64,000 nucleotides of DNA. It comes from Patescibacteria group bacterium. Its GTDB lineage: Bacteria > Patescibacteriota > Minisyncoccia > Phycocordibacterales > BOKC01. The position numbers and the translations under genes were made by a program. Under the pieces are notes generated by a model, which worked only from the letters and a program-made list of their open reading frames with translations, had not been told where the DNA came from and ran no database searches. Positions 2,644 to 55,549 of the stretch are shown piece after piece (position 1 is the first letter of the stretch; each line of letters begins with the position of its first letter). The stretch is from assembly GCA_038062955.1 (NCBI GenBank), contig JBBTWE010000001.1, positions 182,304 to 246,303 on the forward strand, given 5' to 3'.

Positions 2644-2790
2644 TATAGCACATAATTAAACTTAACAAAAGCAGAAATAGCAAATGCATAGTTTCTTTAT
2701 AAAATTAACGAAAATAAAAAAAGGCACCGTCGTGAGAACGGTGCCAGTTGTGACAACACTTGAGAGGTGGCTGTCTAACCTTCGAGCGAA

Positions 2791-3339
2791 CTATCGCTCG
2801 AGATCGAAGTACTTGGCGGGAGCAAGCGAGATGTACTCGAGACCGAAATCATCGGGATGCTTAACGCCCACCTCCATGTCGTAGCCGTGTCCGATGCTGA
2901 CCACAACGTGCGGCTCGCCTTCCCATTCCACGATGAGCGGGTAGCAGATTTCCTTACCTCGCAGTTGGTCCAAGATCTTCTCTGGTGGAGGAGGAGATCC
3001 GCAACTGGGATCGAATCTGATGACCGGAATCTTGAAGGTTGATTCCAGATCGAGAATGTTCCACCAGAACCGTGAATCGTATTCGGCAGCATCCTCATAC
3101 TCCTTTGCAGACTTCTCGCGAGCGAGCTTCTCGATGAGAGTCCTCGGCACACGCCACGGGCTATCCACAATCACCTGGGCGAGCTTCGTGACGATGTCCT
3201 TGCCCCGCTCGCTGGTGAGGAAGTGAAGCATCTCTTCGAAGCCTCCCAACCTCACGATCTCGTTCACGAGAGCCTGAATGAAGACCATCGCCATGCCGAG
3301 ACCCGACACGAGCGACGACGACGAATTCTTGCTTGCCAT
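2791..3339 (-). CDS. hypothetical protein (GC-rich island A ORFan)
   Basis: 182-aa ORF in a clearly GC-richer block; it has an upstream TTGACT-N16-TACACT promoter-like motif and a downstream hairpin plus T7 terminator at 2714-2746. Confidence 0.55.
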   Translation of the reverse strand: MASKNSSSSLVSGLGMAMVFIQALVNEIVRLGGFEEMLHFLTSERGKDIVTKLAQVIVDSPWRVPRTLIEKLAREKSAKEYEDAAEYDSRFWWNILDLESTFKIPVIRFDPSCGSPPPPEKILDQLRGKEICYPLIVEWEGEPHVVVSIGHGYDMEVGVKHPDDFGLEYISLAPAKYFDLER

Positions 3340-3475
3340 GACGGCTACTACTCCTCTTCAGATCCATGACTTATCCATCCTGTTCACAAAATGCGAACGC
3401 TCGGACTTGCCTAGAATCTTCTGGCTACTAGTGTAACATAAGACAGATAAAAGTCAAGACTAGTTAATCGGGATA

Positions 3476-3506
3476 CTAAAAAAGCCCTTGATAAGGGCTT
3501 TTTTGG
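3476..3506. terminator. bidirectional intrinsic terminator downstream of rpsI
   Basis: aaaaaagcccttgataagggctttttt. Confidence 0.7.
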
Positions 3507-3531
3507 GTTGAAATTTCCTTCCAAACACTCT

Positions 3532-3981
3532 TTATCGTTTAGACCATTGAGGGGCCTTGCGGGCCTTCTTGAGACCGAATTTTCTTCTTTCTTTTGCTCT
3601 AGGATCACGTTTGATAAATCCAGCTTGTTTAAGTTTCTTTCGTAGTTCAGAGTCAAATATCATTAATGCTCTTGAAATTCCGTGACGCATTGCGCCAGCT
3701 TGAGAACTGATACCACCTCCTTTTAAAAGTACTGTAACTTTAAATTTCTTAGTTACTTTTGATTTGACCATCGGTTCTTTGACGGTCATGCGCAAAGTTT
3801 CTGTTGGAAAATAAGCTTCGATATCTTTATCGTTTATTGTAAAAGAATTTTTTGGAGCTTCAAACATTCTGACTCTGGCGATAGAAGTCTTTCTTCGTCC
3901 GACAGCTTCAAAATAAGTCTCTTTGCTAGACTTTTTTTCTTCCGTTTTTTCTGTTTTTGCTTTAACTATCATATGTTTCAA
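3532..3981 (-). CDS. rpsI: 30S ribosomal protein S9
   Basis: C-terminus ...GGGISSQAGAMRHGISRAL...RKFGLKKARKAPQWSKR. Confidence 0.95.
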   Translation of the reverse strand: MKHMIVKAKTEKTEEKKSSKETYFEAVGRRKTSIARVRMFEAPKNSFTINDKDIEAYFPTETLRMTVKEPMVKSKVTKKFKVTVLLKGGGISSQAGAMRHGISRALMIFDSELRKKLKQAGFIKRDPRAKERRKFGLKKARKAPQWSKR

Positions 3982-3998
3982 TCTTATATTTTTTTATT

Positions 3999-4019
3999 CC
4001 CTGCCTGCCGGCAGGCAGG
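3999..4019. repeat. perfect GC palindrome cctgcctgccggcaggcagg (a family; other copies at 35143-35162, and degenerate at 7980-8000, 11003-11021, 44331-44351)
   Basis: identical 20-bp palindrome twice, each followed by ttgRatct; the copies at 35143 and 44331 sit 16-40 bp upstream of tRNA-Ala 5' ends. Confidence 0.7.
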
Positions 4020-4032
4020 TTGGATCTTGAAT

Positions 4033-6498: not shown

Positions 6499-6598
6499 AG
6501 ATTTAAGATTTACGATTTAAGATGTATGATTTCAATTAATTTGATGATACAGGAAGTGATTTAAAATCTTAAATCTTACATCCTATATCTGAAATTGT

Positions 6599-7030: not shown

Positions 7031-7105
7031 AAAATAAATTTAAGATTTCTGATTTCAGATATGAGATTTAAAATCATAAATCATATATCTGAAATCTTAG
7101 ATTAC
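7031..7105. repeat. AT-rich imperfect palindrome of the TAAGATTTATGATTT / AAATCATATATCTGAAATCTTAGATTA family (other copies 6499-6598, 7487-7505, 7623-7692, 10955-10993, 53365-53420, 54440-54478)
   Basis: repeated motif in most intergenic spacers of the ribosomal-protein cluster and a few other spacers; forms long AU hairpins in the polycistronic transcript. Confidence 0.65.
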
Positions 7106-7486: not shown

Positions 7487-7505
7487 TGAATTTAAGATTT
7501 ATGAT

Positions 7506-7622
7506 TTATCCTTGTCTTTGTTTGTGTCTGGGATTACTTTTGCAAATCACATGAACACGCCCACGACGCCTTACCGTTTGGCATTTAGGACATATTTTTT
7601 TTACTGCGGCTCTGACCTTCAT
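7506..7622 (-). CDS. rpmJ: 50S ribosomal protein L36
   Basis: manual translation gives [38 protein letters not shown] (38 aa); it is below the 60-aa ORF-track cutoff; it lies between infA and rpsM as expected. Confidence 0.9.
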
Positions 7623-10943: not shown

Positions 10944-11055
10944 TACCTAAATTATATCAGATTCTTTAAGATTTAAGATGTATCATTTAAGATTTATGAT
11001 TTCTGCCTTACGGCAGACAGGTAAAATTAATAAAAAAGCCCCACGACTAGTGAAA

Positions 11056-11253
11056 TTAGCGTGAAGCGGTGCCTCGGGCCTCTACATGTTTGCGGATGAC
11101 ATCAACAAGTTCTTTGGCTACTTGCTCAACTTGTGAGTTCATAACTTGCGATACTGGCTCATGCGGCAAACGAGATCTCATCAATTCAATCTGAAAATGC
11201 ATCAATATGTTGTGAATCTGATCCTCGCTGATAGTCTTGCTGGCAGTGTCCAT
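11056..11253 (-). CDS. hypothetical protein (GC-rich island B ORFan, 65 aa)
   Basis: GC-rich ORF with a perfect ribosome-binding site (AAAAGGAGGcgacaATG) and an upstream TTGGAC promoter-like box; compositionally foreign. Confidence 0.45.
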   Translation of the reverse strand: MDTASKTISEDQIHNILMHFQIELMRSRLPHEPVSQVMNSQVEQVAKELVDVIRKHVEARGTASR

Positions 11254-11354
11254 TGTCGCCTCCTTTTTTGTGGATGTTGAGAAAGAACTGCTCGAAAAAA
11301 CATACTCTTTTTAAGTAGTTTTGTCCAATTCCTTTTTATCCTGATGTCTAGTGC

Positions 11355-13796: not shown

Positions 13797-13845
13797 AAAA
13801 AAGCGCCTCGCGATTCGTTGTTCACGAATTTCGCAAGGCGCCGTT
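13797..13845 (-). terminator. intrinsic terminator of island C, homologous to 43016-43064
   Basis: ggcgccttgcgaaattcgtgaacaacgaatcgcgaggcgc plus T7 on the minus strand; about 80% identical to the terminator of island L gene 3. Confidence 0.65.
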
Positions 13846-13870
13846 GGGCGAGCTGTAGATTTGTTACTAC

Positions 13871-14380
13871 CTACTGCGGTTTGGTGGGAGGCGGAAGGGC
13901 GTGATAAACCGTGAACTGTCGAGGGATTGCTTTGACTTTTGCTTTTTGCCCCTCTATCTCACTCACGAGTTTCCAATTGGCATCGGTCATCTCTGCGTTG
14001 AATACGCTAGCAAGTACATCCTGTTCCTTTTTGATGGCTTCCATCTCATGGGACCAGGAGGAAAGCTGGTTGATCGCCCACTGTGTTTGTGGATTATCAC
14101 CGAAGGAATCCCGCATCGATTTCAGGAAACTCTCGTAGATGAGGATGTCTCTCTGCTTCTTGTAGATTTCTGCAGCGGTATCCTCGAACCACTGGCACCT
14201 CTCGATCATCGCGCGAGGACCAAGTTTCGATGATGTCTCAAACGTAAGTTGGCTAAAGACTATGCATGCAGCCGAGAGACCAAAGATTGCACCTGCCAAC
14301 ATGGCCACAGGTAGTCTCTGTGGCCATTTACCTCTACGATCATCAAGGATCTTTTCCCCATTCAGTTTCGTGGATTCCAT
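13871..14380 (-). CDS. hypothetical membrane-anchored protein (GC-rich island C ORFan)
   Basis: 169 aa with N-terminal TM (LPVAMLAGAIFGLSAACIVF); ribosome-binding site GGAGGAGAAATTGAG-ATG; a palindromic promoter upstream; its terminator is homologous to the one at 43016-43064. Confidence 0.5.
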   Translation of the reverse strand: MESTKLNGEKILDDRRGKWPQRLPVAMLAGAIFGLSAACIVFSQLTFETSSKLGPRAMIERCQWFEDTAAEIYKKQRDILIYESFLKSMRDSFGDNPQTQWAINQLSSWSHEMEAIKKEQDVLASVFNAEMTDANWKLVSEIEGQKAKVKAIPRQFTVYHALPPPTKPQ

Positions 14381-14444
14381 CTCAATTTCTCCTCCAAAAG
14401 AACTGGAACTCTGTAGCGGAGTGCCACAAAGTGTTTATCTGCTT

Positions 14445-14476
14445 TGAATATAAAATACTTGACTATACGAGTCAAG
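14445..14476 (-). promoter_or_regulatory. promoter of island C with a perfect 7-5-7 palindrome CTTGACTcgtatAGTCAAG overlapping the -35 (operator-like)
   Basis: minus strand TTGACT-N17-TATATT; the palindrome is seen directly. Confidence 0.5.
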
Positions 14477-14559
14477 AGTAGAAAAAATTAAATAAAAAAC
14501 ACCCCGATATTCATCCGTTTGTTGCAGATTTTATCAAGGTGGTTATTTGTGTTTTCAAA

Positions 14560-14718
14560 TCAGAGTAACACAACGACTACATACCATACTCCACAAAGAA
14601 AAGAACCAGAGATGACGGCACCCACCAGAAAGATTGCGATGGTGAGTAGTGTGTCTAACCCGGTACGAATGGGTTTCAATTGCGGAACCCATGAAGATGC
14701 GTCTTGTTTTGGAGTCAT
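14560..14718 (-). CDS. small hypothetical membrane protein (island D; start may instead be 14763)
   Basis: 52-67 aa GC-rich ORF with TM segment LLTIAIFLVGAVISGSFLCGVWYVVVVLL; lies upstream of island C on the same strand. Confidence 0.3.
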   Translation of the reverse strand: MTPKQDASSWVPQLKPIRTGLDTLLTIAIFLVGAVISGSFLCGVWYVVVVLL

Positions 14719-14778
14719 ACTTTCCCTTTTGTTGTGAGGAACTTGCCGTGTAAACCATAACAAAAAATCAACTTGCCG

Positions 14779-15027
14779 TCAATATAATTTTTCAGCTTCC
14801 AGAATTTCTTTCTTTTTCTCTGTCCCCCGATTATATCCACCAGTTTTTCCATCACTGCGAATTACCCTATGACACGGAATATCTGAATTAAAGTTTTTAT
14901 TTAAGATATTGCCGACAGCTCGAAACGCTTTAGGACTCTTGGCTTTCGTCGCCACTTCTTTATACGTCAAAACTTTTCCTTTCGGAATTTTGGAAACTAC
15001 ACTTAACACTTTTTCTTTAAACAACAT
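14779..15027 (-). CDS. methylated-DNA--protein-cysteine methyltransferase DNA-binding domain protein (MGMT/Ogt C-terminal domain only)
   Basis: active-site motif IPCHRVIRSDGKTGGY. Confidence 0.8.
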   Translation of the reverse strand: MLFKEKVLSVVSKIPKGKVLTYKEVATKAKSPKAFRAVGNILNKNFNSDIPCHRVIRSDGKTGGYNRGTEKKKEILEAEKLY

Positions 15028-19621: not shown

Positions 19622-19788
19622 GATTTCTATTTTAACGTAAAAATAAAATAGGCGCTAGGTATCCCTCCGGGATCATAAAAACATCAGTGAAATAATCTCT
19701 ATTACTTGACAAGACACTCCAATTCTGTAATTGTATATGAGGATAAACCTGCACTTCGTAGGAATCTGTTCTTTAACAAGGGTTCATT

Positions 19789-20256
19789 ATGCTACTCGCA
19801 ACCGATAGAAAGGCAAAGGTACGTCTGAGAAGGCTCGCAAGGCTCGACTTCACCCAAATCAAGGCCAAACTTTGTTCCGAGATGCCTGGGTGGAATGCGG
19901 AGAAGGCAGAACTCATCGAGAAGTGGTATCGCCGCTTCTTGCAGGTCATTCTCTTCCACCCGCAAGCAAAGATCGTTCCCAACACACTGGTGGATGACTT
20001 CTGGCACGCTCACATCCTCGACACCAAGAAGTACATGCTGGACTGCCAGAACGTCTTCGGGCACTTCGTCCACCACGAACCGTCCTACGGCGAAGAGAAG
20101 TTGGAGGGAGGCTACGATGAGACCAACGCCCTCTTCCGTGAGACGTTTGGTGAAGATCAGACAGTTCTCGAACCTAGTCGGGCTGGTAAAAAGTGCAGGA
20201 AGAAGTGCAGAAGGAAGTGTGGAAGCATAGACGGAAACTGTGCTAGCGGGTACTGA
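19789..20256 (+). CDS. hypothetical protein with DDFWHAHILDT...Y..DC...GHFVHHEP motif and a Cys/Lys-rich C-terminal tail (possibly GRDP/DUF1399-like)
   Basis: GC-rich 155-aa ORF (island E); a plus-strand hairpin plus T8 terminator lies at 20268-20302; the antisense ORF 19792-20274 was rejected. Confidence 0.55.
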   Translation: MLLATDRKAKVRLRRLARLDFTQIKAKLCSEMPGWNAEKAELIEKWYRRFLQVILFHPQAKIVPNTLVDDFWHAHILDTKKYMLDCQNVFGHFVHHEPSYGEEKLEGGYDETNALFRETFGEDQTVLEPSRAGKKCRKKCRRKCGSIDGNCASGY

Positions 20257-20313
20257 AGCGGGACAATTCCCCAAACCATAACAAGTTTGGGGGATTATTT
20301 TTTTTAAATTTTT

Positions 20314-20658: not shown

Positions 20659-20678
20659 TAACTTTTAACCTTATAACT

Positions 20679-24653: not shown

Positions 24654-24786
24654 ATTCATACCCTCTCTCCATTCTCCCGTATTTTCTCCAATATTTCAAG
24701 AGATAATACAAAAATTGGCAAAAAGAAAGGGCGGCCATTGCTGGTCGCCCCTGGTGGAAGTTTGTTCTTGAGCCTTCCACTTTCGT

Positions 24787-25050
24787 TTACTCTTTTCGCT
24801 CGGCACCTTGTTCGACGAGCCAAGCCTCGATTCTCTTCGCATTTTCTGCTGAGAAGAATCCGCGGTAGTATCCAGGACCGCTACTCCCCGAAGTACCAGA
24901 GACTCTGAAGACGCCCTCCTTCAGTTGAAAACTGGTAAATCTGTTGACAAGTCCCCCATCTTCGTAGACGGGATAAGGAGGAGCTTCCTTTTGCTCTCCC
25001 CTTATGCTCACATAGACTCCGGGAATTGTTTCGAAAGTGACTTTTGGCAT
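24787..25050 (-). CDS. hypothetical protein (GC-rich island F ORFan, 87 aa from MPKVTF...)
   Basis: ribosome-binding site AAGGAGaacATG at the internal ATG; TTGACA-N17-TATACT promoter at about 25120-25150; gGGCGGCCATTGCTGGTCGCCC terminator. Confidence 0.5.
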   Translation of the reverse strand: MPKVTFETIPGVYVSIRGEQKEAPPYPVYEDGGLVNRFTSFQLKEGVFRVSGTSGSSGPGYYRGFFSAENAKRIEAWLVEQGAERKE

Positions 25051-25243
25051 GTTCTCCTTCTTTTCGGGTATGATTCGTGACAGCGATGTACTGGCCACGA
25101 TTCTCAAGAAAATAGTTTTTTCTATCGTCCTAAAAACCGCGGCCAGCTACAAAATCAGTGAGTTTTGAATGAACAATTTTCTGCGTCCAGTATACACCCA
25201 TTCGTGTATTTTGTCAAGGACAAATGCACGGCTAGAAATAAGC

Positions 25244-26789: not shown

Positions 26790-26899
26790 ATTTTTAGAGC
26801 TTAAAATAATATTAATAGTGTAATTGTAACCCTTATATTTGTTTTGTCTATGAGAGTCTTGATTAAAAGATAACTTTTGATATATACTGTCGGCAGTGG

Positions 26900-27115
26900 T
26901 GTGGTGGAGTGCAAAGCGCAAACAGGCCATGAGTTAGCGCGTCCCCCAGAATTCCCTGCAGGGTTTCTGGCTTGGCGTGAATGTAGCGAGAAAACACATC
27001 AAGCAAAGTTCCCACGCTACGGGGAAACCCATGGATAAAATCCTTGGCGCGCGGTATCTTCATCACACCACCCTTCACACGTCCTCTTACGAGAGGCGTG
27101 TTTTTTTATACAATT
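26900..27115 (+). ncRNA. candidate small RNA or small-protein transcript (about 215 nt), GC-rich
   Basis: TTGATT-N16/17-TATATA promoter at about 26862-26895; structured GC-rich body (ccagaattccctgcagggtttctgg hairpin); hairpin plus T8 terminator at 27082-27115; only a 30-aa ORF that runs through the terminator. Confidence 0.35.
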
Positions 27116-27119
27116 TTTT

Positions 27120-28226: not shown

Positions 28227-28412
28227 AGTAAATGCGATGATACTTAATAATAAATAACTACTCCTCGCTCCGTAGCAAGCTCTGCTTTGCTTCTGGGGCC
28301 GACGTTTGGCAATCCTACAATCCCAATAGATAAGCTCATATTTTAAATATAACGTGAAAGTTATGAAAAATAAATTACCGACGAAGACGAATCCTCGTCG
28401 GTAATCGAGAAA

Positions 28413-28688
28413 CTACTCCTGAAGTTTGTCCCTGATTGCATAGTGCCTCTCCCTCAAGAATACGTGGTGTTCGTTTTCGGTTTTGCCAGCCAAAAACGCA
28501 AGCTTTCGAAGTTCTGCCAGAGCAGCCTGTCGTCGTTCTTGCTGGCTTCTCGACCAGCTCGACACTCCTTGGTAGTTGCCCTCATTCACCCTCTTGCTTT
28601 CAGTCTCAATCTCGACAACTTGTCTGGCAAAATCATCAACAGCTGCGTTGTACCGGTCAAGCGGGCTTATGCTTTCTTCACTACACAT
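28413..28688 (-). CDS. hypothetical protein (GC-rich island G ORFan, 91 aa)
   Basis: GC-rich ORF; ribosome-binding site AAGGAccgctATG; downstream hairpin attaccgacgaag...cctcgtcggtaat plus T-rich tail. Confidence 0.45.
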   Translation of the reverse strand: MCSEESISPLDRYNAAVDDFARQVVEIETESKRVNEGNYQGVSSWSRSQQERRQAALAELRKLAFLAGKTENEHHVFLRERHYAIRDKLQE

Positions 28689-28777
28689 AGCGGTCCTTTT
28701 TGTTAGGGTGTCTAGAATGAACTAATCTAATCTCAAGATACACTTTTTTTGACTATTTCGCAATAATTGCCCACTAA

Positions 28778-30878: not shown

Positions 30879-31083
30879 ATATCAATAATAACATATTAGT
30901 GGATTCACGATGTAATATCTATGATTCAAGAAAAAGAAGCGTCACAAATTTTTCATGACTACGCCATGAAAAATCTTGCGACGTAATTTTTGTAGTGCAA
31001 AAATTAAAAGCGGGAACCCACGAATGTGGATTCCCGCTGGTTCTGACAGACGGATCTCTACTACTTCTCTCGAGGGCCTACGA

Positions 31084-31356
31084 TCAGGCCTGCTGGAGGA
31101 GTTCCAGCCGATCGAGTGGACGTTGGTTGAGCAACCCTTGGGCAACCTTCCTGATCGGTTGTCTCCTCTTCAGAGCATCCTTGATCCGACTCAACACTCT
31201 CGCGTCGAGGTGGTTCGCTCCACCGCTCTCGAGAATCATCTTCACGAGGCCCAACTCGGGATTGATTTCGCGAAGCTTCGGGGGCGGCTGTTCCTGCATC
31301 AGAGGGCGCATTGACCCTCTGCTTTCTCTGGGACGTGGACGATGACCGTGATTCAT
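31084..31356 (-). CDS. hypothetical protein (GC-rich island H, 90 aa)
   Basis: ribosome-binding site AGGAGAaacgcagg-ATG; strong intrinsic terminator gcgggaatccacattcgtgggttcccgc plus T-run on the minus strand (about 31005-31040). Confidence 0.55.
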   Translation of the reverse strand: MNHGHRPRPRESRGSMRPLMQEQPPPKLREINPELGLVKMILESGGANHLDARVLSRIKDALKRRQPIRKVAQGLLNQRPLDRLELLQQA

Positions 31357-31570
31357 CCTGCGTTTCTCCTACGAGGTTGAGAACTTTCTCTTGGCGTTGT
31401 TGCCTCGAGATCTGCGGTCAATCTTCTCATGGGGAGTTTTGTCTGTCAAAAAAGTTACGCACTTCTCCTTGACATAAAAATCCTAATATATTACACTGGT
31501 AGTCAGAAGAGTTGGCAAGGAGGCCAATTCTCGGTCATTTGTTTCCATGCGTTAGTTTGGAGAAACGGTC

Positions 31571-31795
31571 ATGAGAAAGCAACCGACAACAGAGGTGGAA
31601 ACCAGTCAGCGACCATTCGGGCGCGTACTGGGGGTTCGGATGGCGATGGATCGACTTCCTGAAGAGCCAGCTAGGCTGACTACCAGTTCCCCTGGTGGTC
31701 AGATCGCTCTGGTTCGCTCCACGAAGGTCAGGCGATGCGAAGAACAGGAGATCTCGCTCGCTCTTTGGCACGGAGGCATCACCTCTCGGTCGTGA
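31571..31795 (+). CDS. hypothetical protein (GC-rich island H, 74 aa)
   Basis: ribosome-binding site GGAGAaacggtc-ATG; TTGACA...TACACT promoter; terminator ccccagcatctacggatgctgggg plus T-run at about 31805-31845. Confidence 0.55.
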   Translation: MRKQPTTEVETSQRPFGRVLGVRMAMDRLPEEPARLTTSSPGGQIALVRSTKVRRCEEQEISLALWHGGITSRS

Positions 31796-31843
31796 CGTCT
31801 CGAACCCCAGCATCTACGGATGCTGGGGTTCTTATTTTATATA

Positions 31844-33196: not shown

Positions 33197-33311
33197 GATG
33201 CTTCGATTTTACTACGCCCTCCTTAACTTTGCACGAAACATCCATCATTGCAAAAAATTATTTTTTGATTGATACTAATTCCAGAACTGCACAAACCAAA
33301 TAGGAGGAAAC

Positions 33312-33986
33312 TTGAAAAAGGCACGGCTTCTCGTGTTTGAGTCAGGTGGGGTAGCCCCAGAGATCGGCGGGTCAGAATTCGAAAACCTGGTTCATGCTTC
33401 ACGGAAAGGAGAATTGAACGCCGAGATCGTTGGAGTGGTATCGAACCATGCAAACGGCGGTGTGCGTGCGCGCGCTGGGAGATTGGAAGTTCCGTTCTTC
33501 CATTTTGCAAGTCCTTGGAATGCCACAAGATACCAAGAAGTTGCCATGCGAAGCGACGCGAATTTCTTCGCTCTTTCTGGATGGGACAAGTATGTGGTAG
33601 GTCTTGACCTCGACACTTGCTTCAGTTCGAAGACAGTGTTCAATATTCATCATGGCCCTCTACCGGATTCCGGTGGACAAGGAATGTATGGACATCGTGT
33701 TCACAGAAGAGTCATAGCAACATTTCGGCGAGGTGAGATAAGAGACACCGCTGTCACCATGCAATTCGTCACTGCCAATGGATACAATTGCGGTCCGGTT
33801 TTCTTTCGACACAGGATTCCGATCCTGGAGCGTGAGATGCCAGAAGCTTTGGCAAAACGTGTTGGTGAATGGGGGCATCGTCTCCAACCACAAGTTACCG
33901 ACTGGGTAGTGAACGGTCTCGTCAGATGGGACGGAGTGAATTGGGATTCTCTTCGGATTCCCGAAACCATTCGTTCTGGGTGCTGA
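33312..33986 (+). CDS. formyltransferase-domain protein (PurN/GAR-transformylase-like, divergent)
   Basis: AEIVGVVSNHAN..., FNIHHGPLP (matches NIHPSLLP with Asn/His), FVTANGYNCGPV region; GC-rich; plus-strand terminator gcgactcttaaacgggtcgc plus T7. Confidence 0.5.
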   Translation: MKKARLLVFESGGVAPEIGGSEFENLVHASRKGELNAEIVGVVSNHANGGVRARAGRLEVPFFHFASPWNATRYQEVAMRSDANFFALSGWDKYVVGLDLDTCFSSKTVFNIHHGPLPDSGGQGMYGHRVHRRVIATFRRGEIRDTAVTMQFVTANGYNCGPVFFRHRIPILEREMPEALAKRVGEWGHRLQPQVTDWVVNGLVRWDGVNWDSLRIPETIRSGC

Positions 33987-34040
33987 TCGGTCACAATTCG
34001 TACGAGCGACTCTTAAACGGGTCGCTTTTTTTATGTATAA

Positions 34041-34090
34041 AAAAATCGCGGGAAAATCTTGAAGATTCTCTACCGCGATTTGAACGAACT
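34041..34090. terminator. back-to-back terminators between the formyltransferase (+) and GNAT (-) genes; the minus-strand one is homologous to 34538-34590
   Basis: shared aaaaaa(t/c)cgcggga-N14-ctctaccgcgatttg framework with a variable loop. Confidence 0.55.
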
Positions 34091-34091
34091 C

Positions 34092-34439
34092 CTATGCTGA
34101 TTGTTTGAGGTTCATTCGGAACTCTTTACCGTATTCTTTGAAACCCAAATCGATATAGAGTCTGTGCACACTAACACGAATGCGTCGGCTTGTGGCGATC
34201 AGTTTGTAGCACCCCAAAGACCTCGCTTTTTCGATGAGTTTGACGACGAGAGAACTCCCAATGCTCTTTCCTCGCAAGTGCGGATCAACATACACATCTT
34301 CCATAAGTCCGAATGGTTCTTCGTGCAGATCGTTGCCCAAAACATAGAGAAATGCTCGAGCAACCTCTTTACCACCCCTTCTGACGCTAAACCTGAAACC
34401 TTGGCATCTGCGTTCGAGTGTGACTGCTACTTCGTCCAT
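34092..34439 (-). CDS. GNAT-family N-acetyltransferase
   Basis: VYVDPHLRGKSIGSSLVVKLIEKARSLGCYKLIA (acetyl-CoA binding motif A); convergent with the formyltransferase gene. Confidence 0.65.
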   Translation of the reverse strand: MDEVAVTLERRCQGFRFSVRRGGKEVARAFLYVLGNDLHEEPFGLMEDVYVDPHLRGKSIGSSLVVKLIEKARSLGCYKLIATSRRIRVSVHRLYIDLGFKEYGKEFRMNLKQSA

Positions 34440-34591
34440 TTTTGTTCTCCTTGTTAGTCCGGAACGAGTATATGCGGAAGAAAGTTAAAAATCAAACCCG
34501 CCAAAGTTTTTTCGAAGAAAAAATTTAGGCGGGTAAATAAAAAAACCGCGGGAGTGTCGTATGACCCTCTACCGCGATTTGCCATCCAACT

Positions 34592-34819
34592 TTAGCGCCA
34601 AGAGCTGATTACGATTGCCAATTGTGTAACTGCAAGAGCAGCCTCAAAGTTGTCTCGGTAATCTGCAAACCCTTCCAACATATCTCTAAGGAAATCCTGC
34701 TGTCCTTCGTAAAGAGACATATTGCCAGGAATACCAACCAGAAGGGCTTTGACAAGCCCAGCGGTTCTTGGTGTCGCTATTCTTTCTAGGTAGTCTCTCG
34801 CGTTTACTATATCTGCCAT
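34592..34819 (-). CDS. hypothetical protein (GC-rich island J, 75 aa)
   Basis: ribosome-binding site AAGGAcgacagATG; TTGACA promoter abutting a tRNA-derived repeat; terminator homologous to the one at 34041-34090. Confidence 0.45.
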   Translation of the reverse strand: MADIVNARDYLERIATPRTAGLVKALLVGIPGNMSLYEGQQDFLRDMLEGFADYRDNFEAALAVTQLAIVISSWR

Positions 34820-34920
34820 CTGTCGTCCTTGCGATGGTATGTCATCGTCATTGTTGCGTTTTCTAAGAAGATCAATCTACTTTTACGTTATCGTGGATTC
34901 TTTAGCTTGTCAAAATTTGG

Positions 34921-34937
34921 TGGACCATAGCGGGATC
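34921..34937. repeat. 17-bp exact direct repeat of the tRNA-Ala(GGC) 3' end (tggaccatagcgggatc; second copy inside the tRNA at 35055-35071); att-like
   Basis: exact 17/17 match 117 bp from the tRNA 3' end; a further inverted partial T-arm copy ttcgatcccgctacgg lies at 35002-35017. Confidence 0.7.
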
Positions 34938-35054
34938 TCCACCTACCGTGGCGGGTGGTTTTCGATTTCGTAAACTCAATAACGAAAACCCTTTCGATCC
35001 CGCTACGGAGTGAAGCAGTTCACTCCTCCGGTTCCTAACTCACTGCGTTCGTTG

Positions 35055-40917: not shown

Positions 40918-40956
40918 CTTTTGACTTTAGGGTCAAAAAGACAATCTTACAATTAT

Positions 40957-41012
40957 ATCATAAAGATAAAAACCCTTGTTTTTAGGCCTAGTTATGGAAT
41001 TAGGAGGATTTT
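40957..41012. repeat. about 55-bp direct repeat (second copy 41538-41596, about 85% identical), each followed by a TTGACA promoter
   Basis: acaattatatcataaagataaaaa(c/g)c(c/t)ttgtttttag... aligned by eye. Confidence 0.65.
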
Positions 41013-41026
41013 ATAGAAAATTCGCT

Positions 41027-41055
41027 TGACAATAAACTAGATGTGTGTATAATAT
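41027..41055 (+). promoter_or_regulatory. near-consensus sigma70-type promoter TTGACA-N16-TATAAT with TGn
   Basis: cgcTTGACAataaactagatgtgTGtgTATAATatac. Confidence 0.6.
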
Positions 41056-41064
41056 ACAAGGATA

Positions 41065-41478
41065 CGTTCGGCGCCAAATCCTTAAATGGCGAACACATGT
41101 CACTACGGGGTACAGCGATATGTGAGGCCAGCGTAGTATGTTTTCTCTCCCCATCCGACATACCACAAACGGTAACGGAAGAAGAAAGAGAAATAAGTTC
41201 CAGGCCGTGTCTCCATCCTGGAACGAAGCAAAAAAGAGACAACAAAAAAGACAAATTCTGCTATGATCCCGGGAAAGTTCCCGTGCGATCGAAGGTTCTA
41301 GACGGTGAGAATCTGTTCGCGATCCCGGGTTAAATCCTGGGCGAACATAAGGCCAAGATGCCACAACCGAGCACCCTGAGGATTGGTCTCCTCGCGTCCC
41401 ATAGGCCGCGTACTGGGTGATGATACTTTGACCACGGGCCGGAGCAACGATTCAGTCGTTTGCTTCGGCCCTTTTTTA
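41065..41478 (+). ncRNA. promoter/terminator-bounded GC-rich transcription unit (about 410 nt): structured ncRNA candidate, or a 79-aa Cys-containing small protein without a ribosome-binding site
   Basis: near-consensus TTGACA-N16(TGtG)-TATAAT at 41027-41055; multiple perfect hairpins (gttccagg...cctggaac, gttcgc...gcgaac); terminator gggccgg...cggccc plus T6 at 41436-41478; no RNase P / tmRNA / SRP signatures. Confidence 0.4.
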
Positions 41479-41665
41479 TTGCAAATTTTTAGGTATTTGT
41501 AGATGTGTGATGCGAATAAAAAGCAAAAAAGCGAATATAACAATTATATCATAAAGATAAAAAGCTTTGTTTTTAGACGTTTTTGTGGAATTATGCTAAT
41601 TTTACTTGACATTTTCCTGTATTATGATATTATCTAAATAGAACATCCAACCCACAGGAGGACTT

Positions 41666-41941
41666 ATGGAACCATACATGATGAAAAGGGCAGATGTAGA
41701 GGTCATGCTCATCTACATCAGAAGTGGCCTAATCCATCAGCATCAAGAAACAAACCGTAGTGACTTGATTGCAATTTTCGAAGCTGCACTTGCCGTTGCC
41801 GATCCGAAGCACTCGGGTAAGTACGTTTTTGTCAATTTCGGAGAGGGAGACCGTTACCATGACTTGTGGCATCAATACGGTGACCTGATCCGGGAGATCT
41901 GCTTCAGATACGAAACCATGCGGCAAGGTGGAAGACCCTAG
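41666..41941 (+). CDS. hypothetical protein (GC-rich island K2, 91 aa)
   Basis: TTGACA promoter (duplicated module) plus perfect ribosome-binding site AGGAGGacttATG. Confidence 0.5.
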   Translation: MEPYMMKRADVEVMLIYIRSGLIHQHQETNRSDLIAIFEAALAVADPKHSGKYVFVNFGEGDRYHDLWHQYGDLIREICFRYETMRQGGRP

Positions 41942-42026
41942 GCTGCTCTGTCACAACCGTCACCAACAAAGAGAACTGTCTCTGCGTTCGGGGCGGTTTT
42001 CTTTTATACAAAATTCTTCTAATTCC

Positions 42027-46008: not shown

Positions 46009-47361
46009 TTAATTTATTTTTTGATCAATTTTCATTTCTTTTTCTATTTCTATTAATCTTTCGTATTTTGCTTTACGTTCCGGTGGATTGGGTGATCCTG
46101 CTTTGATACCGTATGTGCCGAGTCCGACTGCCAAATCAGCGATAAATGAGTCTGGAGTGTCTCCGGATCTGTGAGAGACGATTGTTTTCCATCCCGCTTT
46201 GTGTGCTAGACGGACCGCTTCAAAAACTTCTGAAACGGTGCCGATTTGGTTCGGTTTGATTATAACAGCGTTCGCGGCGTGTTCTTTTGACAGTTTGGAT
46301 ATTCTTTCTGGATTGGTTACTGTCAGATCATCTCCAACAATAATAGTGTCTTTTCCAATTTCACCCACTATTTTTTTAAAGTAAGTTTCGGAACTTTCTT
46401 CAAAAGGATCTTCAATGCTTTTGAGACGGAATTTTGAAGTAAGATATTTATATAAATTTAAAAGTTCATCGGGAGAATATGATTTCCCTAATATGTTATA
46501 GCTTCCGTTTTTGAAAAACTCCGAAGCGGCCGAATCAATGGCAAAGAAAACATTTTGTCTGCCTGACGCTTCTTCAAGAAGGCTGAATGGTTCTTCGATT
46601 TTTTCACAAATTGGAGAATATCCACCTTCATCGCCGAAAGGCACATTTCCAAACCGCGTTTTAATTATCTCTCCAAGATTTTTAAAAATTTCTTGTCCTA
46701 CTTGAAAAGACTGCTTGGCGCTTTTCTCTCTTATAACAATCATGTATTCCTGAAAAGGTAGTCGAAAGTTGGCGTGCACTCCTCCGTTTATGATATTCAT
46801 AAATAGACTGGGCATTTTCGGAGAAGTTTTATTTTCCTCGGCGATGTTTTTCCATAGAGGCAATCCATTTTCCTCGGCTCTAAGCATGGCTACAGCCATC
46901 GAAATTCCTATTGTCGTATTTCCTCCAAGAACGGACTTATTTTTTGTTCCGTCCAAAGAAATTAAGAGATCATCTATTTGCTTTTGATCTGGTTTTTTAC
47001 CTACAAGCGCCGGCGATATTTTGGTTGCTATGATCTCGATAGCTTTTTTCATTCCACCATCTTCATCGCGAAGTTCTGCGGCTTCCAATGATCCTGTTGA
47101 TTGACCGCGTGGCACAAAAGATGTAACGGTAAAATTATTTGATTCCAAAACAACCTTCAAAGTCGGTTTGCCCGTTGAATCTTTTATTTCATATCCCGAT
47201 ATTTTTTTTATTCCGGCTAGCGAGCGGCATCGCGAGAATTTATTCTCATGATGCGCGAGCGAAGACGGATCAAATGGTTTAATATCCCGCGGCTCTGCCG
47301 CGGACTTTGTGTCCAGGGCTTTGCCCTGGGGTTTAATACCATTTATTGAGCCGTCTTTCAT
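46009..47361 (-). CDS. eno: enolase (phosphopyruvate hydratase) with an unusual 55-60 aa GC-rich N-terminal extension
   Basis: YEIKDSTGKPTLKVVLE..., SHRSGDTPDSFIADLAVG motifs; no in-frame ATG close to the conserved N-terminus, so the ORF only starts at 47361. Confidence 0.9.
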   Translation of the reverse strand: MKDGSINGIKPQGKALDTKSAAEPRDIKPFDPSSLAHHENKFSRCRSLAGIKKISGYEIKDSTGKPTLKVVLESNNFTVTSFVPRGQSTGSLEAAELRDEDGGMKKAIEIIATKISPALVGKKPDQKQIDDLLISLDGTKNKSVLGGNTTIGISMAVAMLRAEENGLPLWKNIAEENKTSPKMPSLFMNIINGGVHANFRLPFQEYMIVIREKSAKQSFQVGQEIFKNLGEIIKTRFGNVPFGDEGGYSPICEKIEEPFSLLEEASGRQNVFFAIDSAASEFFKNGSYNILGKSYSPDELLNLYKYLTSKFRLKSIEDPFEESSETYFKKIVGEIGKDTIIVGDDLTVTNPERISKLSKEHAANAVIIKPNQIGTVSEVFEAVRLAHKAGWKTIVSHRSGDTPDSFIADLAVGLGTYGIKAGSPNPPERKAKYERLIEIEKEMKIDQKIN

Positions 47362-51252: not shown

Positions 51253-51370
51253 TTGCATATCCAACAAATATATAATTATTTTTGATAAAAGAAAACACCG
51301 CTTGCTGACCTAGACTAGCTAGATTTAAGCGAAGCGGTGTTGGAGGTGAGGGGTTGCCAACTTGGTTTTT

Positions 51371-51814
51371 TCAGTCCATCTTCTTTTGTTGCCAATCGAC
51401 AACTAAGAAAACACTGACTAACGTATGGTCGGAAACCAGAATCGGAACTTCCACGATGCGAATTGAATCTCCTACTTTCCACGGAATGAATGCCGGAGAG
51501 ATGCTGGCAGGCATAGCTACAAAATTGACAAAGGCCGTAAGAGTCCCACCGGTGTGAGTTTCAAACTCCACCTGCATGAGTCCAACAAAGTCTTGCCCTT
51601 TAGGGCCATCGAGGTCGATCACCTTCACCGGCATGTGAGCAACTTTCACCCACCTTCCCGGGCCAGTAAGTCCATCCGGATGCGTAGCAATAATTGACGG
51701 CCCGATCTCAGAACTTGCGATGGCTACAGGTATCACTCCGAATAGTATGTAATAAACACCAAAACAGATGATAATGGCCATCAATGCAGCCAGAGCTTTC
51801 ACTAGAGCTTTCAT
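51371..51814 (-). CDS. hypothetical exported/membrane-anchored protein (GC-rich island M, 147 aa)
   Basis: N-terminal signal-like hydrophobic region; ribosome-binding site AAGGGAGacaaacgATG; TTGACT...TATGTTAC promoter similar to island A. Confidence 0.5.
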   Translation of the reverse strand: MKALVKALAALMAIIICFGVYYILFGVIPVAIASSEIGPSIIATHPDGLTGPGRWVKVAHMPVKVIDLDGPKGQDFVGLMQVEFETHTGGTLTAFVNFVAMPASISPAFIPWKVGDSIRIVEVPILVSDHTLVSVFLVVDWQQKKMD

Positions 51815-51972
51815 CGTTTGTCTCCCTTCGATTTGAGTTTGCTTTAAACAAAGAACACTCGCTCTTTAAAACGTAACATACTTAATAGTTGAAAGTCAAG
51901 AGCAAGATAAATTATTTTATTTCTATACTTTTAACTATCTGATCTATAAGGTTATCAATACTAGTTGAATGT

Positions 51973-53224: not shown

Positions 53225-53286
53225 TCTGTATGTTATTTATATACCAAAATATAACGAGAATTAATGACTACTTGTAAGTAAGTTTG

Positions 53287-53359
53287 TGGACCCTACCGGG
53301 ATCGAACCGGTCGCCTCCACATTGCAAATGTGGCGCTCTACCAGATGAGCTAAGGGCCC
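53287..53359 (-). tRNA. tRNA-Ala (anticodon UGC)
   Basis: revcomp is GGGCCCTTAGCTCATCTGGTAGAGCGCCACATTTGCAATGTGGAGGCGACCGGTTCGATCCCGGTAGGGTCCA; G3:U70; anticodon loop UUUGCAA. Confidence 0.9.
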
Positions 53360-53427
53360 GAAAATATAATGGAATTTAAGTCTGATATCTTAAATCTCAA
53401 ATCTATACTACCTTACAACAAACGGAA

Positions 53428-54432
53428 CTATTTGTTAAGCGCTAATATTATAACGTGATCAAGGAACTCTCCCAAACTTGTTCCAGCGGCTTTCAAAGAT
53501 TTTGGCAGAAGAGATTCAGTAGTAAGTCCGGGTAAAGTATTTACTTCAAGAATATATATCTCTCCGTTATCCGAGAGGATCATGTCTGTTCTAGAATAAT
53601 GTCGGAGGCCGAGTGCTTTGTGAGCCTGAAGAGCAATATCCTGTACGTTCTTCGTGATATTTGGAGGAAGCTGTGCGGGACAAATTTCCTGCGTCTTTCC
53701 ACCGTATTTTGCCTCGTAATCAAAAAATTCCGAACCGACAGGCTTTATTTCAACCGGAGGCAAAGGGAAAACAGAACCGTCATCCAAACTATCGACAACA
53801 CCGCAGGTTACTTCCCTACCCTTCACAAATTCCTCCACCAATACTTGCGAAGAATATTTAAAAGCGTATTCAATCGCTCCTTTGAATTCTTCAAAAGTGT
53901 TGGAAATCCGTACACCTAGAGACGATCCGGAAGTCGCAGGCTTTGTTACCAAAGGCTTGTTTAGGGTGTTAAATATTTCAAATATCTCCAGATAATTCGT
54001 TTTGTTTTTATTGAGTGTTGCGCCTCTTGCGGTTTTTATTCCCTCTCTTATAAAGACTTTCTTTGATAAATCCTTATTCATTGCAACCGATGAGGAAAAA
54101 GAATCGGAACCTGTGTATGGAACATTATGAGCTTCAAGAATTTTCTGCAGTTTTCCGTCTTCGCCATATTCGCCATGAAGGCCATTAAACACAACGTCTA
54201 AGTGTTTGAGAATATTTTCCGGCTCCTGAATCATTCCATCAAAGTGCCATTTTCCGTTCTCGTCAATATAAATATCGACTGGATGATATTTATTTCCCAA
54301 ATGTTCTAAAACAGTCGCACCAGTTTTTAGAGAGACATCGTGTTCTCCGGATGGCCCTCCACGCAAAACCCCCACTCTAATTTTAGAGGTTTTATTTTTT
54401 CTGTGTGCCAAATGATCTTTCATAACAAACAT
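53428..54432 (-). CDS. ddl: D-alanine--D-alanine ligase
   Basis: ATP-grasp; VGVLRGGPSGEHDVSLKTG N-terminal motif. Confidence 0.85.
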   Translation of the reverse strand: MFVMKDHLAHRKNKTSKIRVGVLRGGPSGEHDVSLKTGATVLEHLGNKYHPVDIYIDENGKWHFDGMIQEPENILKHLDVVFNGLHGEYGEDGKLQKILEAHNVPYTGSDSFSSSVAMNKDLSKKVFIREGIKTARGATLNKNKTNYLEIFEIFNTLNKPLVTKPATSGSSLGVRISNTFEEFKGAIEYAFKYSSQVLVEEFVKGREVTCGVVDSLDDGSVFPLPPVEIKPVGSEFFDYEAKYGGKTQEICPAQLPPNITKNVQDIALQAHKALGLRHYSRTDMILSDNGEIYILEVNTLPGLTTESLLPKSLKAAGTSLGEFLDHVIILALNK

Positions 54433-54512
54433 TATACCAAAGATAAATCATAAATCTTATATCTAAAATCTGAAATTATTGACGTGGTTGACTACACCAA
54501 AGTAATATATTA

Positions 54513-55460
54513 ATGTCTATATCAGATTCGGACACATCGTCCGAAAGTAATCCGCGAAATTCCGCGGGCAGTTCTTTCAAAAAAGAGGGTCTCGTGAATA
54601 CGGAAACAAGAAAGATTGGTCTTGCCTGCTTCATCGGTGGTTTCCTCGGTTGTATCGTGGCGCTCATCTGTACACCGGCCTTCTGGTGGCTCGGTCTCAT
54701 TGCTGGGTTTGCGGGTGGCTACGTGAGCTACGAGTTCCGTTCGGTGCTTCAGGCGATTCCCAAGGCGTTTTTGCAGGTGCAGAAGGAATTCAGTCTCGAT
54801 TTCGTGAGAGCTTGTTTTCAGGGAACAAAAAAATGGTTTGCCAAGCCTCATCCGATTGTTTACTTCGGGCTGTGTTCAGGACTCTTGTGGACCATCATTG
54901 AGGTACTGTTTGATGTTAGTCCTCCAAAGAGATTGGATGGCCAATTACCCCAAATAGACGATTTCGTTGCTCTCTATCTCATCACTTTCCTTGGGTCTGG
55001 ATTCTGTTCCGGGCTTATTGGTGTTACTGTCGTGTTGATAGGAGCTCGTGATGAGATTGGTTTCGTGCCAGACGATTTTTTTGGTGGGTATAGAGAAGCT
55101 CTCAACCACGCCACTGTCGGAGTCGGTCGAGTTCTGAAGTTCGTCTTCTGGACAGCCAGCGTGAAGATCGTTCTGTGGACCATACCGAAGTGGGTATTTC
55201 TAGTGATCTTTGTCTTGGGAGCATGGTGCTGGGAACTCTTCAAGATCATCCACTCGGACAAGCGTCTGCTCTGTGGAGTAGACAGCGCAATTGGTGTGGC
55301 AACAGGCTACATCTTGGCCTTGGGGCAATCCGCTTCATTGGTTGAGTCCTTGTTCTTCTCCACTTATGCCGGACTCATTGGAGCGGTACTCGGGATTCTC
55401 AACTGGGAGCTCGTTTCCAAGCGATGGCTCAAGGTACCCGTGAAGGTAAGAGCGGATTAG
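54513..55460 (+). CDS. hypothetical polytopic membrane protein (GC-rich island N, 315 aa)
   Basis: 8 or more predicted TM segments; TTGAC promoter-like boxes at 54465-54500; hairpin plus T6 terminator at 55468-55515. Confidence 0.5.
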   Translation: MSISDSDTSSESNPRNSAGSSFKKEGLVNTETRKIGLACFIGGFLGCIVALICTPAFWWLGLIAGFAGGYVSYEFRSVLQAIPKAFLQVQKEFSLDFVRACFQGTKKWFAKPHPIVYFGLCSGLLWTIIEVLFDVSPPKRLDGQLPQIDDFVALYLITFLGSGFCSGLIGVTVVLIGARDEIGFVPDDFFGGYREALNHATVGVGRVLKFVFWTASVKIVLWTIPKWVFLVIFVLGAWCWELFKIIHSDKRLLCGVDSAIGVATGYILALGQSASLVESLFFSTYAGLIGAVLGILNWELVSKRWLKVPVKVRAD

Positions 55461-55549
55461 TATCGTCACATCGGCGGTCTTGTAGACAGAAATGTCTCGA
55501 CCGCCGATTTTTTATTATACAGATATAGGAATAGGAGTTTTTAAACAAT

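Follow-up and report, generated by a model that had tools for sequence, protein, structure and literature searches.

The 64-kb stretch of DNA analysed here (hereafter the window) belongs to a metagenome-assembled genome (MAG) of the Patescibacteria, about 0.7 Mb in size and AT-rich, which comes from groundwater of the Hainich aquifer. Its genes are interspersed with short GC-rich islands, amounting to about 17 protein-coding transcription units with 18 open reading frames (ORFs) plus two RNA-gene candidates. Islands and backbone differ in composition, promoter type, translation initiation and termination, which makes the window a real and unusually clean case of a genome organized in two layers. 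The islands probably represent a layer of horizontally acquired accessory units within a conserved, AT-rich Patescibacteria backbone and, as far as sequence comparison can tell, those that could be tested are functional and old. What is new is not the presence of foreign genes, horizontal gene transfer into Patescibacteria having been documented before (PMC12455944), but the architecture of the units and their persistence. If this holds, about one sixth of a streamlined genome of the Candidate Phyla Radiation (CPR) would consist of plug-in transcription units, differing from the core genome in promoter type, translation initiation and termination. It would also provide a testable picture of tiny, probably naturally competent bacteria that express foreign genes without rewiring their operons.

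Composition and expression signals of the two layers

A preliminary description of this DNA had singled out fifteen intervals as GC-rich. All of them have a GC content of 43-53%, as against 36.7% in the other 53,983 bases of the window (38.5% overall), and together they make up 15.7% of it. The individual units are 0.3-1.7 kb long and are dispersed over 53 kb. The GC content at third codon positions (GC3) ranges per gene from 0.39 to 0.68 in the island ORFs and from 0.19 to 0.41 in host genes, and when the island ORFs are pooled, the correlation of their relative synonymous codon usage with the host's is only r = 0.14. Amino acid usage is shifted as well, with 5.1% lysine in the islands versus 10.5% in the host, and 7.6% arginine versus 4.1%. 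Quantified in this way, GC content and codon usage are clearly non-uniform, and the codon and amino acid usage of the islands is foreign to the backbone. There is also a difference in orientation: five of the 18 island ORFs are on the plus strand, compared with one of 50 host genes (p = 0.004), and both RNA candidates (G and K1) are on this strand too.

Such a contrast, taken alone, would count in favor of an assembly or binning artefact, in which reads of a GC-richer organism had been joined chimerically to those of the host. The probability of this explanation is, however, negligible. Several other assemblies of this aquifer well contain, in all, nine further contigs in which the island junctions are 99.6-100% identical; three more contigs, the source contig of the window being among the three, show 100% identity. 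In addition, homologous junctions exist in relatives from two other sample sets. Because the junctions recur in contigs of other assemblies, the islands are not assembly chimeras.

The expression signals were compared between 50 backbone genes and the 18 island ORFs. A Shine-Dalgarno (SD) sequence was considered strong when its duplex had a free energy of -6 or lower, the anti-SD being assumed canonical; to count as a terminator, a stable hairpin with a T-run behind it had to lie no more than 90 nt from the stop codon. With the anti-SD so assumed, a strong SD precedes 13 of the 18 island ORFs and 3 of the 50 host genes (Fisher test, 1e-7), and a terminator is predicted for 15 of the 18 and 4 of the 50, respectively (6e-9). 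A -10-like hexamer located 4-14 nt ahead of the ATG shows the opposite distribution, being present in 19 of the 50 host genes and in none of the island ORFs (0.0015). The backbone promoters consist of an extended -10 box (TGnTATAAT), without a recognisable -35 box, placed 6-12 nt before the ATG; many backbone mRNAs should therefore be leaderless. In nearly all cassettes, on the other hand, the promoter comprises a TTGAC(A/T) box, a spacer of 16-18 nt and a -10 box, followed by a 5' untranslated region (UTR) of 20-130 nt, and the ribosome would presumably make use of the SD. The host genes rpoA, alaS, leuS and the ppsA-like gene (with PPDK Pfam domains), which had been cited as lacking an SD, are all without one.

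The islands thus hold up as compositionally foreign and self-sufficient units with signals for expression of another kind than the backbone's, their autonomy (an own promoter and terminator) being predicted from sequence, with -35 and -10 boxes for essentially all units. The claim that each island carries the full set of signals applies to most of them: E and O have no strong SD, while B, L1 and L2 have no clear terminator of their own. Cassette O is in fact built like a leaderless host gene. Likewise, most islands encode proteins, with the exception of G and the first half of K (41026-41480), where a promoter and a terminator are accompanied by no credible ORF. Within the 182-aa ORF of cassette A, one assembly had annotated a 68-aa ORF in a different frame, and gene callers trained on the backbone will misjudge the start sites of the cassettes. 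Full-text literature searches brought up no account, for Patescibacteria, of SD-led cassettes embedded in a leaderless backbone.

It could be argued that the islands are structured non-coding RNA genes, conspicuous by their GC content in AT-rich genomes, and that their ORFs arose by chance. G and K1, with folding z-scores of -3.9 and -4.55, and the covarying RNA motif in the leader of A fit this idea, which is nonetheless highly improbable for the islands as a whole. Most of them contain long ORFs behind a correctly spaced SD; J1 and J2 have Pfam matches, E has a Pfam assignment on record (UCP032817-like) and A is a member of a protein family. Moreover, the dN/dS ratios (nonsynonymous to synonymous divergence) of J1, J3 and K2 are 0.2-0.4, and the coding regions have ordinary folding z-scores.

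The statement that the island products cannot be assigned to any family does not apply to J1, J2, E and A. A Pfam scan of 20 island ORFs, alternative frames included, gave matches only for J1 (formyltransferase, PurN-like) and J2 (GNAT), and NCBIfam added nothing to these two among the ten larger island proteins. The same ten proteins had no match in PHROGs or PADLOC, that is, no phage and no defence homology. Searches of phage records with protein A, of IMG/VR with family A, and of plasmids with O, L3 and C were negative, and the predicted structure of protein A (with a predicted local distance difference test score of 78) had no Foldseek match in the PDB at E < 1. Family A comprises uncharacterised proteins of about 180 aa in 111 representative clusters. 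The idea of a coherent set of membrane, secreted or cysteine-rich products is not supported: a membrane helix is predicted in only 6 of the 18 products and few are rich in cysteine.

Distribution, age and origin of the islands

Two pairs of relatives were found with the G6PD-domain protein of the host: L015/L016, from the ENA 'ANAN16' sample set (82% identity), and L017/L018, from the JGI metagenome 3300020195 (75% identity). The relatives examined for island orthology cover 28-43 kb of the window. Neither the G6PD protein nor the 23-nt K module gave a match when GTDB genomes were scanned, so the clade of the window is without a species representative in GTDB. In both pairs the backbone genes follow the order of the window and GC-rich islands occupy the corresponding positions; between them, the relatives contain same-site orthologues of H, I1, I2, J1, J3 and K1, and these orthologous cassettes are as GC-rich as those of the window. 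Host genes in these relatives have a synonymous divergence (dS) of 1.2-3.0, a nonsynonymous divergence (dN) of 0.10-0.19 and 75-82% amino acid identity, the synonymous sites being saturated. The islands had been regarded as recently acquired; orthologous cassettes in two relatives at this distance refute it, on sequence grounds, for the cassettes that could be tested.

The rate at which the cassettes evolve is variable. J1, J3 and K2 have dN/dS ratios of 0.2-0.4 (about 0.3-0.4 for the J3 orthologues in L015 and L017). J1 is 70% identical in L017, and K2 is 79% identical in L015, where its location is another one and a separate copy of the upstream module accompanies it. H, I1 and I2 are fast-evolving (dN 0.5-1.2), the same-site orthologues of H in L015 and L017 retaining 28-49% amino acid identity. 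In island I, both relatives show stronger conservation in the promoters, at the leader starts, in the SD plus the initial codons and in the terminators than in the ORFs. J2 is absent in L015 and L017 and specific to the lineage of the window.

Two slots are situated directly 3' of tRNA-Ala genes, one occupied by J (at the GGC gene, 35054-35127) and the other by L1-L2 (at the CGC gene, 44217-44290); a 19-kb part of the window contains three such genes, with the anticodons GGC, CGC and UGC. Part of the variation concerns the slot at the GGC gene. The tRNA-Ala(GGC) gene is followed by J3, J2 and J1 in the window, by two other GC-rich genes and then J3 in L015, and by J3, a fused L2/L1-like ORF, J1 and a GC-rich gene with AIRS (PurM-type) domains in L017. 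This tRNA gene and J3 are separated by an element of about 134 nt, at the end of which 18 nt of the tRNA 3' end (GATCCCGCTATGGTCCAC) are duplicated, then CA, the copy ending CCA; by its sequence the duplicate looks like an att site. The element is 96% identical (129/134) between the window and L015, two lineages in which the PGI-ROK spacer is about 54% identical; it is absent in L017 and folds stably (-52 kcal/mol). It may be a remnant of an integrated element, or else a small mobile or functional RNA. The 18-nt repeat brackets only these ~134 nt and not the J genes, and the other islands are not beside tRNA genes. The promoter of J3 is located directly after the tRNA-like 3' fragment, and its leader contains a conserved hairpin. 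As an observation in its own right, this leader is about 90% conserved in three lineages (window 34820-34890, minus strand; L015 9500-9595; L017 6900-6994), and its hairpin, directly before the SD, shows compensatory changes (CGATGA...CATCG, GATGAT...ATCATC, ACGATGA...TCATCGT).

The preliminary description had seen in the islands a recent family of cassettes that derived from one higher-GC, SD-using donor through an unrecognised mobile system. In line with this, modules are common to unrelated cargo (A/I2, A/N, C/L3, J2/J3 and K1/K2), K1 is flanked by direct 79-nt repeats and J2 by two terminator copies, and the 134-nt element has kept 96% identity where neutral spacers have kept about 54%. 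This explanation is nevertheless very unlikely, being largely refuted by the synteny result: most testable cassettes have orthologues in diverged relatives, with 28-80% protein identity. Their origins are heterogeneous, which is at odds with a single donor, since A and J1 belong to Patescibacteria-wide families and the nearest plasmid homologues of E and J2 are in Proteobacteria and Cyanobacteria. There are no common ends, repeats or recombinase either. A mobile system could not be recognised, neither by terminal repeats, target-site duplications or a recombinase nor by phage or defence homology. In 18 of the 19 units the longest flank repeats are 0-9 nt (direct) and 0-11 nt (inverted); the direct ones are within the expectation from shuffles, which were made for direct repeats only, and two are marginal (I2 and J2, p about 0.045). 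The exception is K1, where the direct repeats are copies of the 79-nt promoter module.

For most islands, the best reading of the sequences is a horizontal origin. Five genomes contain the family-A unit, and the five sites are unrelated to one another: in the window, it is flanked by grpE and rpsI; on the opposite strand between rpsN and rplE, inside a ribosomal-protein operon, in L099 (7500-8880); between a uracil-DNA glycosylase (UDG-family) gene and alaS, beside an rve-family transposase, in L103; beside tRNA-Pro in L101; and elsewhere again in L100. (The rpsN gene of L099 is uncalled, yet readable in the DNA.) All five units keep the TTGAC promoter, the structured leader and an SD-like motif, and the terminator is kept in the one case in which it was read (L099). 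Because they are kept together at five sites, the promoter, the leader and the ORF at least belong to the moving unit, which is probably the whole transcription unit. In L100, whose host has 37% GC, the family-A homologue has a GC3 of 0.32; hence, family A has no intrinsic need for a high GC content.

Other cassettes point in the same direction. The gene order from leuS to alaS is kept in L103, with 48-69% amino acid identity, and gaps of 49-109 nt stand where the window has C, D and E. Homologues of E (34-46% identity) are located on plasmids of Ralstonia, Azospirillum and Cupriavidus, J2 is 55% identical to a GNAT protein on an Acaryochloris plasmid, and J1 shares 52-60% identity with PurN-like proteins from many Patescibacteria. 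Conservation in synteny, which would mark the islands as ordinary core genes, is seen at the family level (L015 and L017) but fails farther off, in L103. Ten more distant relatives, retrieved from metagenomes with the PPDK-domain (ppsA-like) protein at no more than 68% identity, have no comparable density of islands, and none of the loci fetched with this protein contains an island homologue.

Several observations weigh against a horizontal origin. Most cassettes are without an identified donor. The unit ends have neither target-site duplications nor terminal inverted repeats, no called gene in the window has an integrase or transposase Pfam domain on record, and no phage or defence homology was found for the island products searched. 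In genomes without GC contrast (L100 and L099), family A is still SD-led among SD-free neighbours; the contrast in translation initiation may therefore mark a class of genes, and not foreignness. Furthermore, the GC excess has been kept over a divergence at which the synonymous sites of the host are saturated. The polarised substitutions in H, I1, I2 and J3 amount to 159 from GC to AT versus 152 in the opposite direction, that is, no net flux. At the third positions of J3 the counts are 12 and 18, where amelioration to a GC3 of 0.3 predicts about 2.85 to 1 (binomial, 9e-5), although third positions are too saturated for such counts to be decisive. Finally, the dS of J3 and K2 is about 0.56, around half that of the host.

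Much of this would suit a native class of regulated, leadered, SD-dependent genes, kept GC-rich by selection or by GC-biased gene conversion and inherited vertically with occasional rearrangement. The same-site orthologues in two relatives despite a host dS above 1.2, the lack of net GC-to-AT flux, the lowered dS of J3 and K2, the higher conservation of promoters, leaders, SD sites and terminators relative to the ORFs, and the SD-led family A where GC contents are equal all speak for it. It is, however, unlikely, as it leaves too much unaccounted for: the host-like GC3 of family A in L100; its five unrelated sites, one within a ribosomal-protein operon and one by a transposase; the lack of C, D and E in the same-order backbone of L103; the lineage-specific J2, with a plasmid homologue in another phylum, and E, with homologues in Proteobacteria; and an amino acid composition that is shifted in addition to the third codon positions. 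The island mRNAs, besides, are no more structured than those of the host. Selection on mRNA structure was considered as the force that holds GC high and was rejected because island and host coding regions share the same mean folding z-score (-0.66 and -0.59, respectively).

Under a horizontal origin, the question is raised of why the GC excess survived a divergence that saturated the synonymous sites of the host. The donors may have been so rich in GC that amelioration is still only partial; the excess may be actively maintained, through selection or GC-biased gene conversion; or homologous alleles may have replaced the cassettes later. A bolder and rather doubtful proposal is that this clade runs two expression regimes: a leaderless backbone devoid of -35 boxes and terminators, and a pool of SD-dependent, terminator-insulated 'chromosomal morons' that is exchanged among Patescibacteria and with other phyla. 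After insertion, these units would not drift towards the composition of the host, their high GC content being actively maintained by selection or by GC-biased gene conversion at slots prone to recombination. If this were true, the compositional boundary would be a stable functional feature and not a fading scar of transfer.

Proposed mode of acquisition and comparison with known systems

The horizontally acquired unit would consist of a promoter with -35 and -10 boxes, a 5' UTR (structured in some cases), an SD, a GC-rich ORF and a strong intrinsic terminator. Insulated in this manner, it could be expressed wherever it landed, without joining or disturbing host operons. The units may have entered intergenic sites singly and from several sources, which are likely to be other Patescibacteria for A and J1, and families shared with other phyla for E and J2. 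Most insertions would be older than the split of the known relatives and would have been kept since then; selection seems visible on promoters, leaders, SD sites and terminators, and many of the proteins appear to evolve fast. Turnover presumably goes on, with J2 gained, K2 moved and the content of the tRNA-Ala slot depending on the lineage. As the entry route, natural transformation is suggested, followed by illegitimate or flank-homology recombination and with occasional help from insertion sequences or integrases.

Among the known systems, the nearest analogy is the morons of lambdoid phages, transposed to a cellular CPR chromosome. Morons are extra genes with their own promoter and terminator, located between conserved phage genes and often deviant in GC content. 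The likeness extends to the single-gene unit of promoter, ORF and terminator between co-oriented backbone genes, to the deviant composition and to the dispensable accessory cargo. Unlike morons, the islands sit on a cellular chromosome, among genes for ribosomal proteins, aminoacyl-tRNA synthetases and glycolysis, and no phage homologues were found; in addition, promoter class and translation initiation set the units apart from the backbone, and the units persist in diverged relatives.

Genomic islands, single transferred genes and prophages are reported to account for up to 13% of genome length in Patescibacteria and to be mostly exchanged within the group (PMC12455944). The islands of the window resemble them as deviant accessory DNA that represents a comparable fraction (about 16% of the window), in the intra-phylum origin proposed for A and J1, and in two tRNA-adjacent sites. 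They differ in that the units are short (0.3-1.7 kb) and scattered singly, are without detected mobility genes and have their own expression signals; a term search of that paper found no mention of promoters. A classical tRNA-linked island carries integrase or mobility genes and is usually larger than 10 kb, and the units of the window show neither feature. Integron cassettes are similar as small single-gene modules with a structured 3' element common to unrelated cargo (here, the C/L3 and J2/J3 terminators). Nonetheless, integron cassettes are promoterless, are gathered in one array by intI and attI, and have attC ends, while the units of the window have their own promoters, are dispersed and have no integrase Pfam domain on record (an attC model was not run). 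Genomes that mix leaderless and SD-led genes are known in Mycobacterium (PMC3898074; PMC4633059) and among the leaderless gene classes of GeneMarkS-2 (PMC6028130). There, too, one class has the -10 box directly before the ATG and another is leadered and SD-dependent; in the window, however, the two classes coincide with two compositions and with the division into backbone and accessory genes.

Cassettes, RNA elements and other sequence features

The coordinates of the cassettes and of the associated elements are collected in Table 1. The neighbours of the islands include rpsI, grpE, alaS, leuS and genes with G6PD, bacterial PGI and enolase Pfam domains.

Table 1. Features of the islands and associated elements (positions in the window unless another locus is named)
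Feature	Position	Strand	Description
Cassette A	2713..3460	-	TTGACT -35 and -10; leader ~85 nt; SD; 182-aa ORF 2791-3339; GC 52%
Cassette A terminator	2723-2745		stem
Family-A 5'-UTR RNA motif	3364..3415	-	52 nt; three stacked helices; conserved CCGAGC and CAGGAUGG
Copies of the family-A RNA motif	L099 7932-7982; L100 2122-2173; L101 222-273; L103 3400-3451
Cassette B	11030..11327	-	TGGACA/TATGTT; AAGGAGG SD; 65-aa ORF 11056-11253; weak terminator
Cassette C	13797..14475	-	TTGACT/TATATT; SD; 169-aa ORF 13871-14380, one predicted membrane helix
Cassette D	14493..14782	-	TTGACG/TG-TATGGT; 52-aa hydrophobic ORF 14560-14718; terminator
Cassette E	19706..20306	+	TTGACA promoter; weak SD; 155-aa ORF 19789-20256, GC3 0.68; terminator
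Cassette F	24718..25217	-	TTGACA/TATACT; leader ~130 nt; SD; 87-aa ORF 24787-25050; terminator
Island G	26850..27118	+	RNA candidate, ~200-230 nt; promoter; intrinsic terminator
Cassette H	28368..28763	-	promoter; AAGGA SD; 91-aa ORF 28413-28688; terminator
Cassette I1	31003..31448	-	TTGACA, extended -10; conserved leader; SD; 90-aa ORF 31084-31356; terminator
Cassette I2	31469..31840	+	divergent from I1; TTGACA/TATATT; SD; 74-aa ORF 31571-31795; terminator
Cassette J1	33248..34033	+	AGGAGG SD; PurN-like formyltransferase 33312-33986; terminator
Cassette J2	34038..34495	-	115-aa GNAT acetyltransferase 34092-34439; terminator
Cassette J3	34540..34913	-	TTGACA promoter; AAGGAC SD; 75-aa ORF 34592-34819; terminator
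~134-nt element	34921..35053	-	between tRNA-Ala(GGC) and J3; L015 copy about 7736-7860
K upstream module, copy 1	40935..41013	.	common to K1 and K2
Island K1	41026..41480	+	RNA candidate, ~410 nt; TTGACA-17-TATAAT promoter; strong terminator; z = -4.55
Cassette K2	41526..42008	+	module copy 2 41526-41604; TTGACA; AGGAGG SD; 91-aa ORF 41666-41941; terminator
Cassette L3	43012..43585	-	TTGACA; AAGGAGG SD; 144-aa ORF 43084-43518; terminator
Cassette L1-L2	43597..44205	-	bicistronic; ORFs of 63 aa (43915-44106) and 98 aa (43616-43912); AAGGAGG/AGGAGG SD ahead of both
Cassette N	51287..51898	-	SD; 147-aa ORF 51371-51814, hydrophobic N-terminus; terminator
Cassette O	54479..55512	+	TTGACG -35; TAATAT -10 4 nt ahead of ATG; leaderless; no SD; 315-aa ORF 54513-55460, ~5 predicted membrane helices; terminator
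Heptamer-like arrays	6494-6541, 7031-7115, 7483-7702, 10965-11010, 54438-54489, 56816-56847		last one inside a UvrC-like ORF

The shared non-coding modules reported earlier are real, but some of them had been assigned to the wrong partners. The 22-nt leader segment (19/22 identical) is common to A and I2, in which it forms the start of the leader (31491-31512), and not to A and H. In the same way, it is A and N, instead of A and M, that have the TTGACTTT...TATGTTAC promoter in common, and the two copies of the 'cgcggga...ctctaccgcgatttg' terminator (43/56) are both inside J, in J2 and J3, and not divided between I and J. The common terminator of C and L (C and L3, 51/63 identical) and the duplication at K, a module of 79-130 nt upstream of each unit (90/130 identical), were as described. 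Copy 1 of the K module contains a host-type TGATATAAT promoter that faces the Exonuc_VII_L gene (large subunit of exonuclease VII, xseA-like). All these modules are pairwise and local to the lineage of the window, and no sequence is common to all cassettes.

The leader of family A contains an RNA motif in which 12 pairs are formed in all five sequences, five of them with compensatory changes. None of 500 shuffles reaches its score, and slid controls pair at 28-45%. A covariance model (R1) recovered family-A sites only in the 0.87 Mb scanned, and there is no match to the motif in Rfam. This motif, which fronts a widespread Patescibacteria protein family, is a candidate for a new cis-regulatory RNA or riboswitch of this phylum.

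G and K1 are, from their sequences, candidates for unannotated RNA genes. G folds as a rod with a long closing stem, has no SD-led ORF on the plus strand and belongs to no Rfam family. K1 is likewise without an Rfam match. L015 has retained its promoter and 3' domain, while the only small ORF is broken there by a 1-nt indel; in L017 it is absent at this site. A resemblance of K1 to RNase P RNA, transfer-messenger RNA or signal recognition particle RNA, noticed by eye, was not supported by Rfam or ARAGORN. Rfam searches (at gathering thresholds, with an E limit of 1 over the whole window and of 10 in focused scans) returned only the three tRNA-Ala genes and ohsC, an antitoxin small RNA of E. 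coli. The ohsC match (20603-20669, minus strand; 55 bits against a gathering threshold of 50) sits on a bidirectional terminator hairpin downstream of a sigma-factor gene and is most likely a false positive in this phylum.

Island M, at 47200..47345 (minus strand), proved not to be a cassette but the 5' end of the enolase ORF (46009-47361). It is a GC-rich, hairpin-forming stretch within a 5' extension of about 46 codons: the nine best-matching enolase loci align from residue ~37-59, and the tenth (L020) from residue 11. The extension (47200-47361) looks like nested small insertions, flanked by the short duplications ATTAAACC and CGCTCGC. The underlying GGTATTAAACC...TTTGATC.GTCT...CGCTCGCTA.CCGGAATAAA recurs at 20558-20606 (plus strand) in non-coding DNA downstream of the sigma-factor gene. 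The conserved start of the enolase has no adjoining in-frame ATG, GTG or TTG.

Some other repeats were noticed as well. Arrays of heptamer-like repeats (TAAGATTT, ATGATTT and similar) are present in both orientations, mostly in backbone intergenic regions and chiefly around rpsM-rpsK-rpsD; a role as promoter-upstream elements or as binding sites of a regulator is possible. The backbone also has several copies of a GC-rich palindrome, CCTGCC(T/G)GCCGGCAGGCAGG, at 3991-4027, 10993-11029, 35134-35170 and about 44340-44365, with copies just upstream of tRNA-Ala genes and adjoining islands B and J. Lastly, the motif ATG(A/G)ATCCCGTAGT(A/G)GAAAATGGCAT is found at 24619-24660 and 40886-40913 (minus strand) and at 24526-24549 (plus strand), including one perfect 24-nt inverted pair, and reads as an upstream ORF of 14-15 codons (MNPVVKNGI.../MDPVVENGI...) ahead of leuS and of the xseA-like gene.

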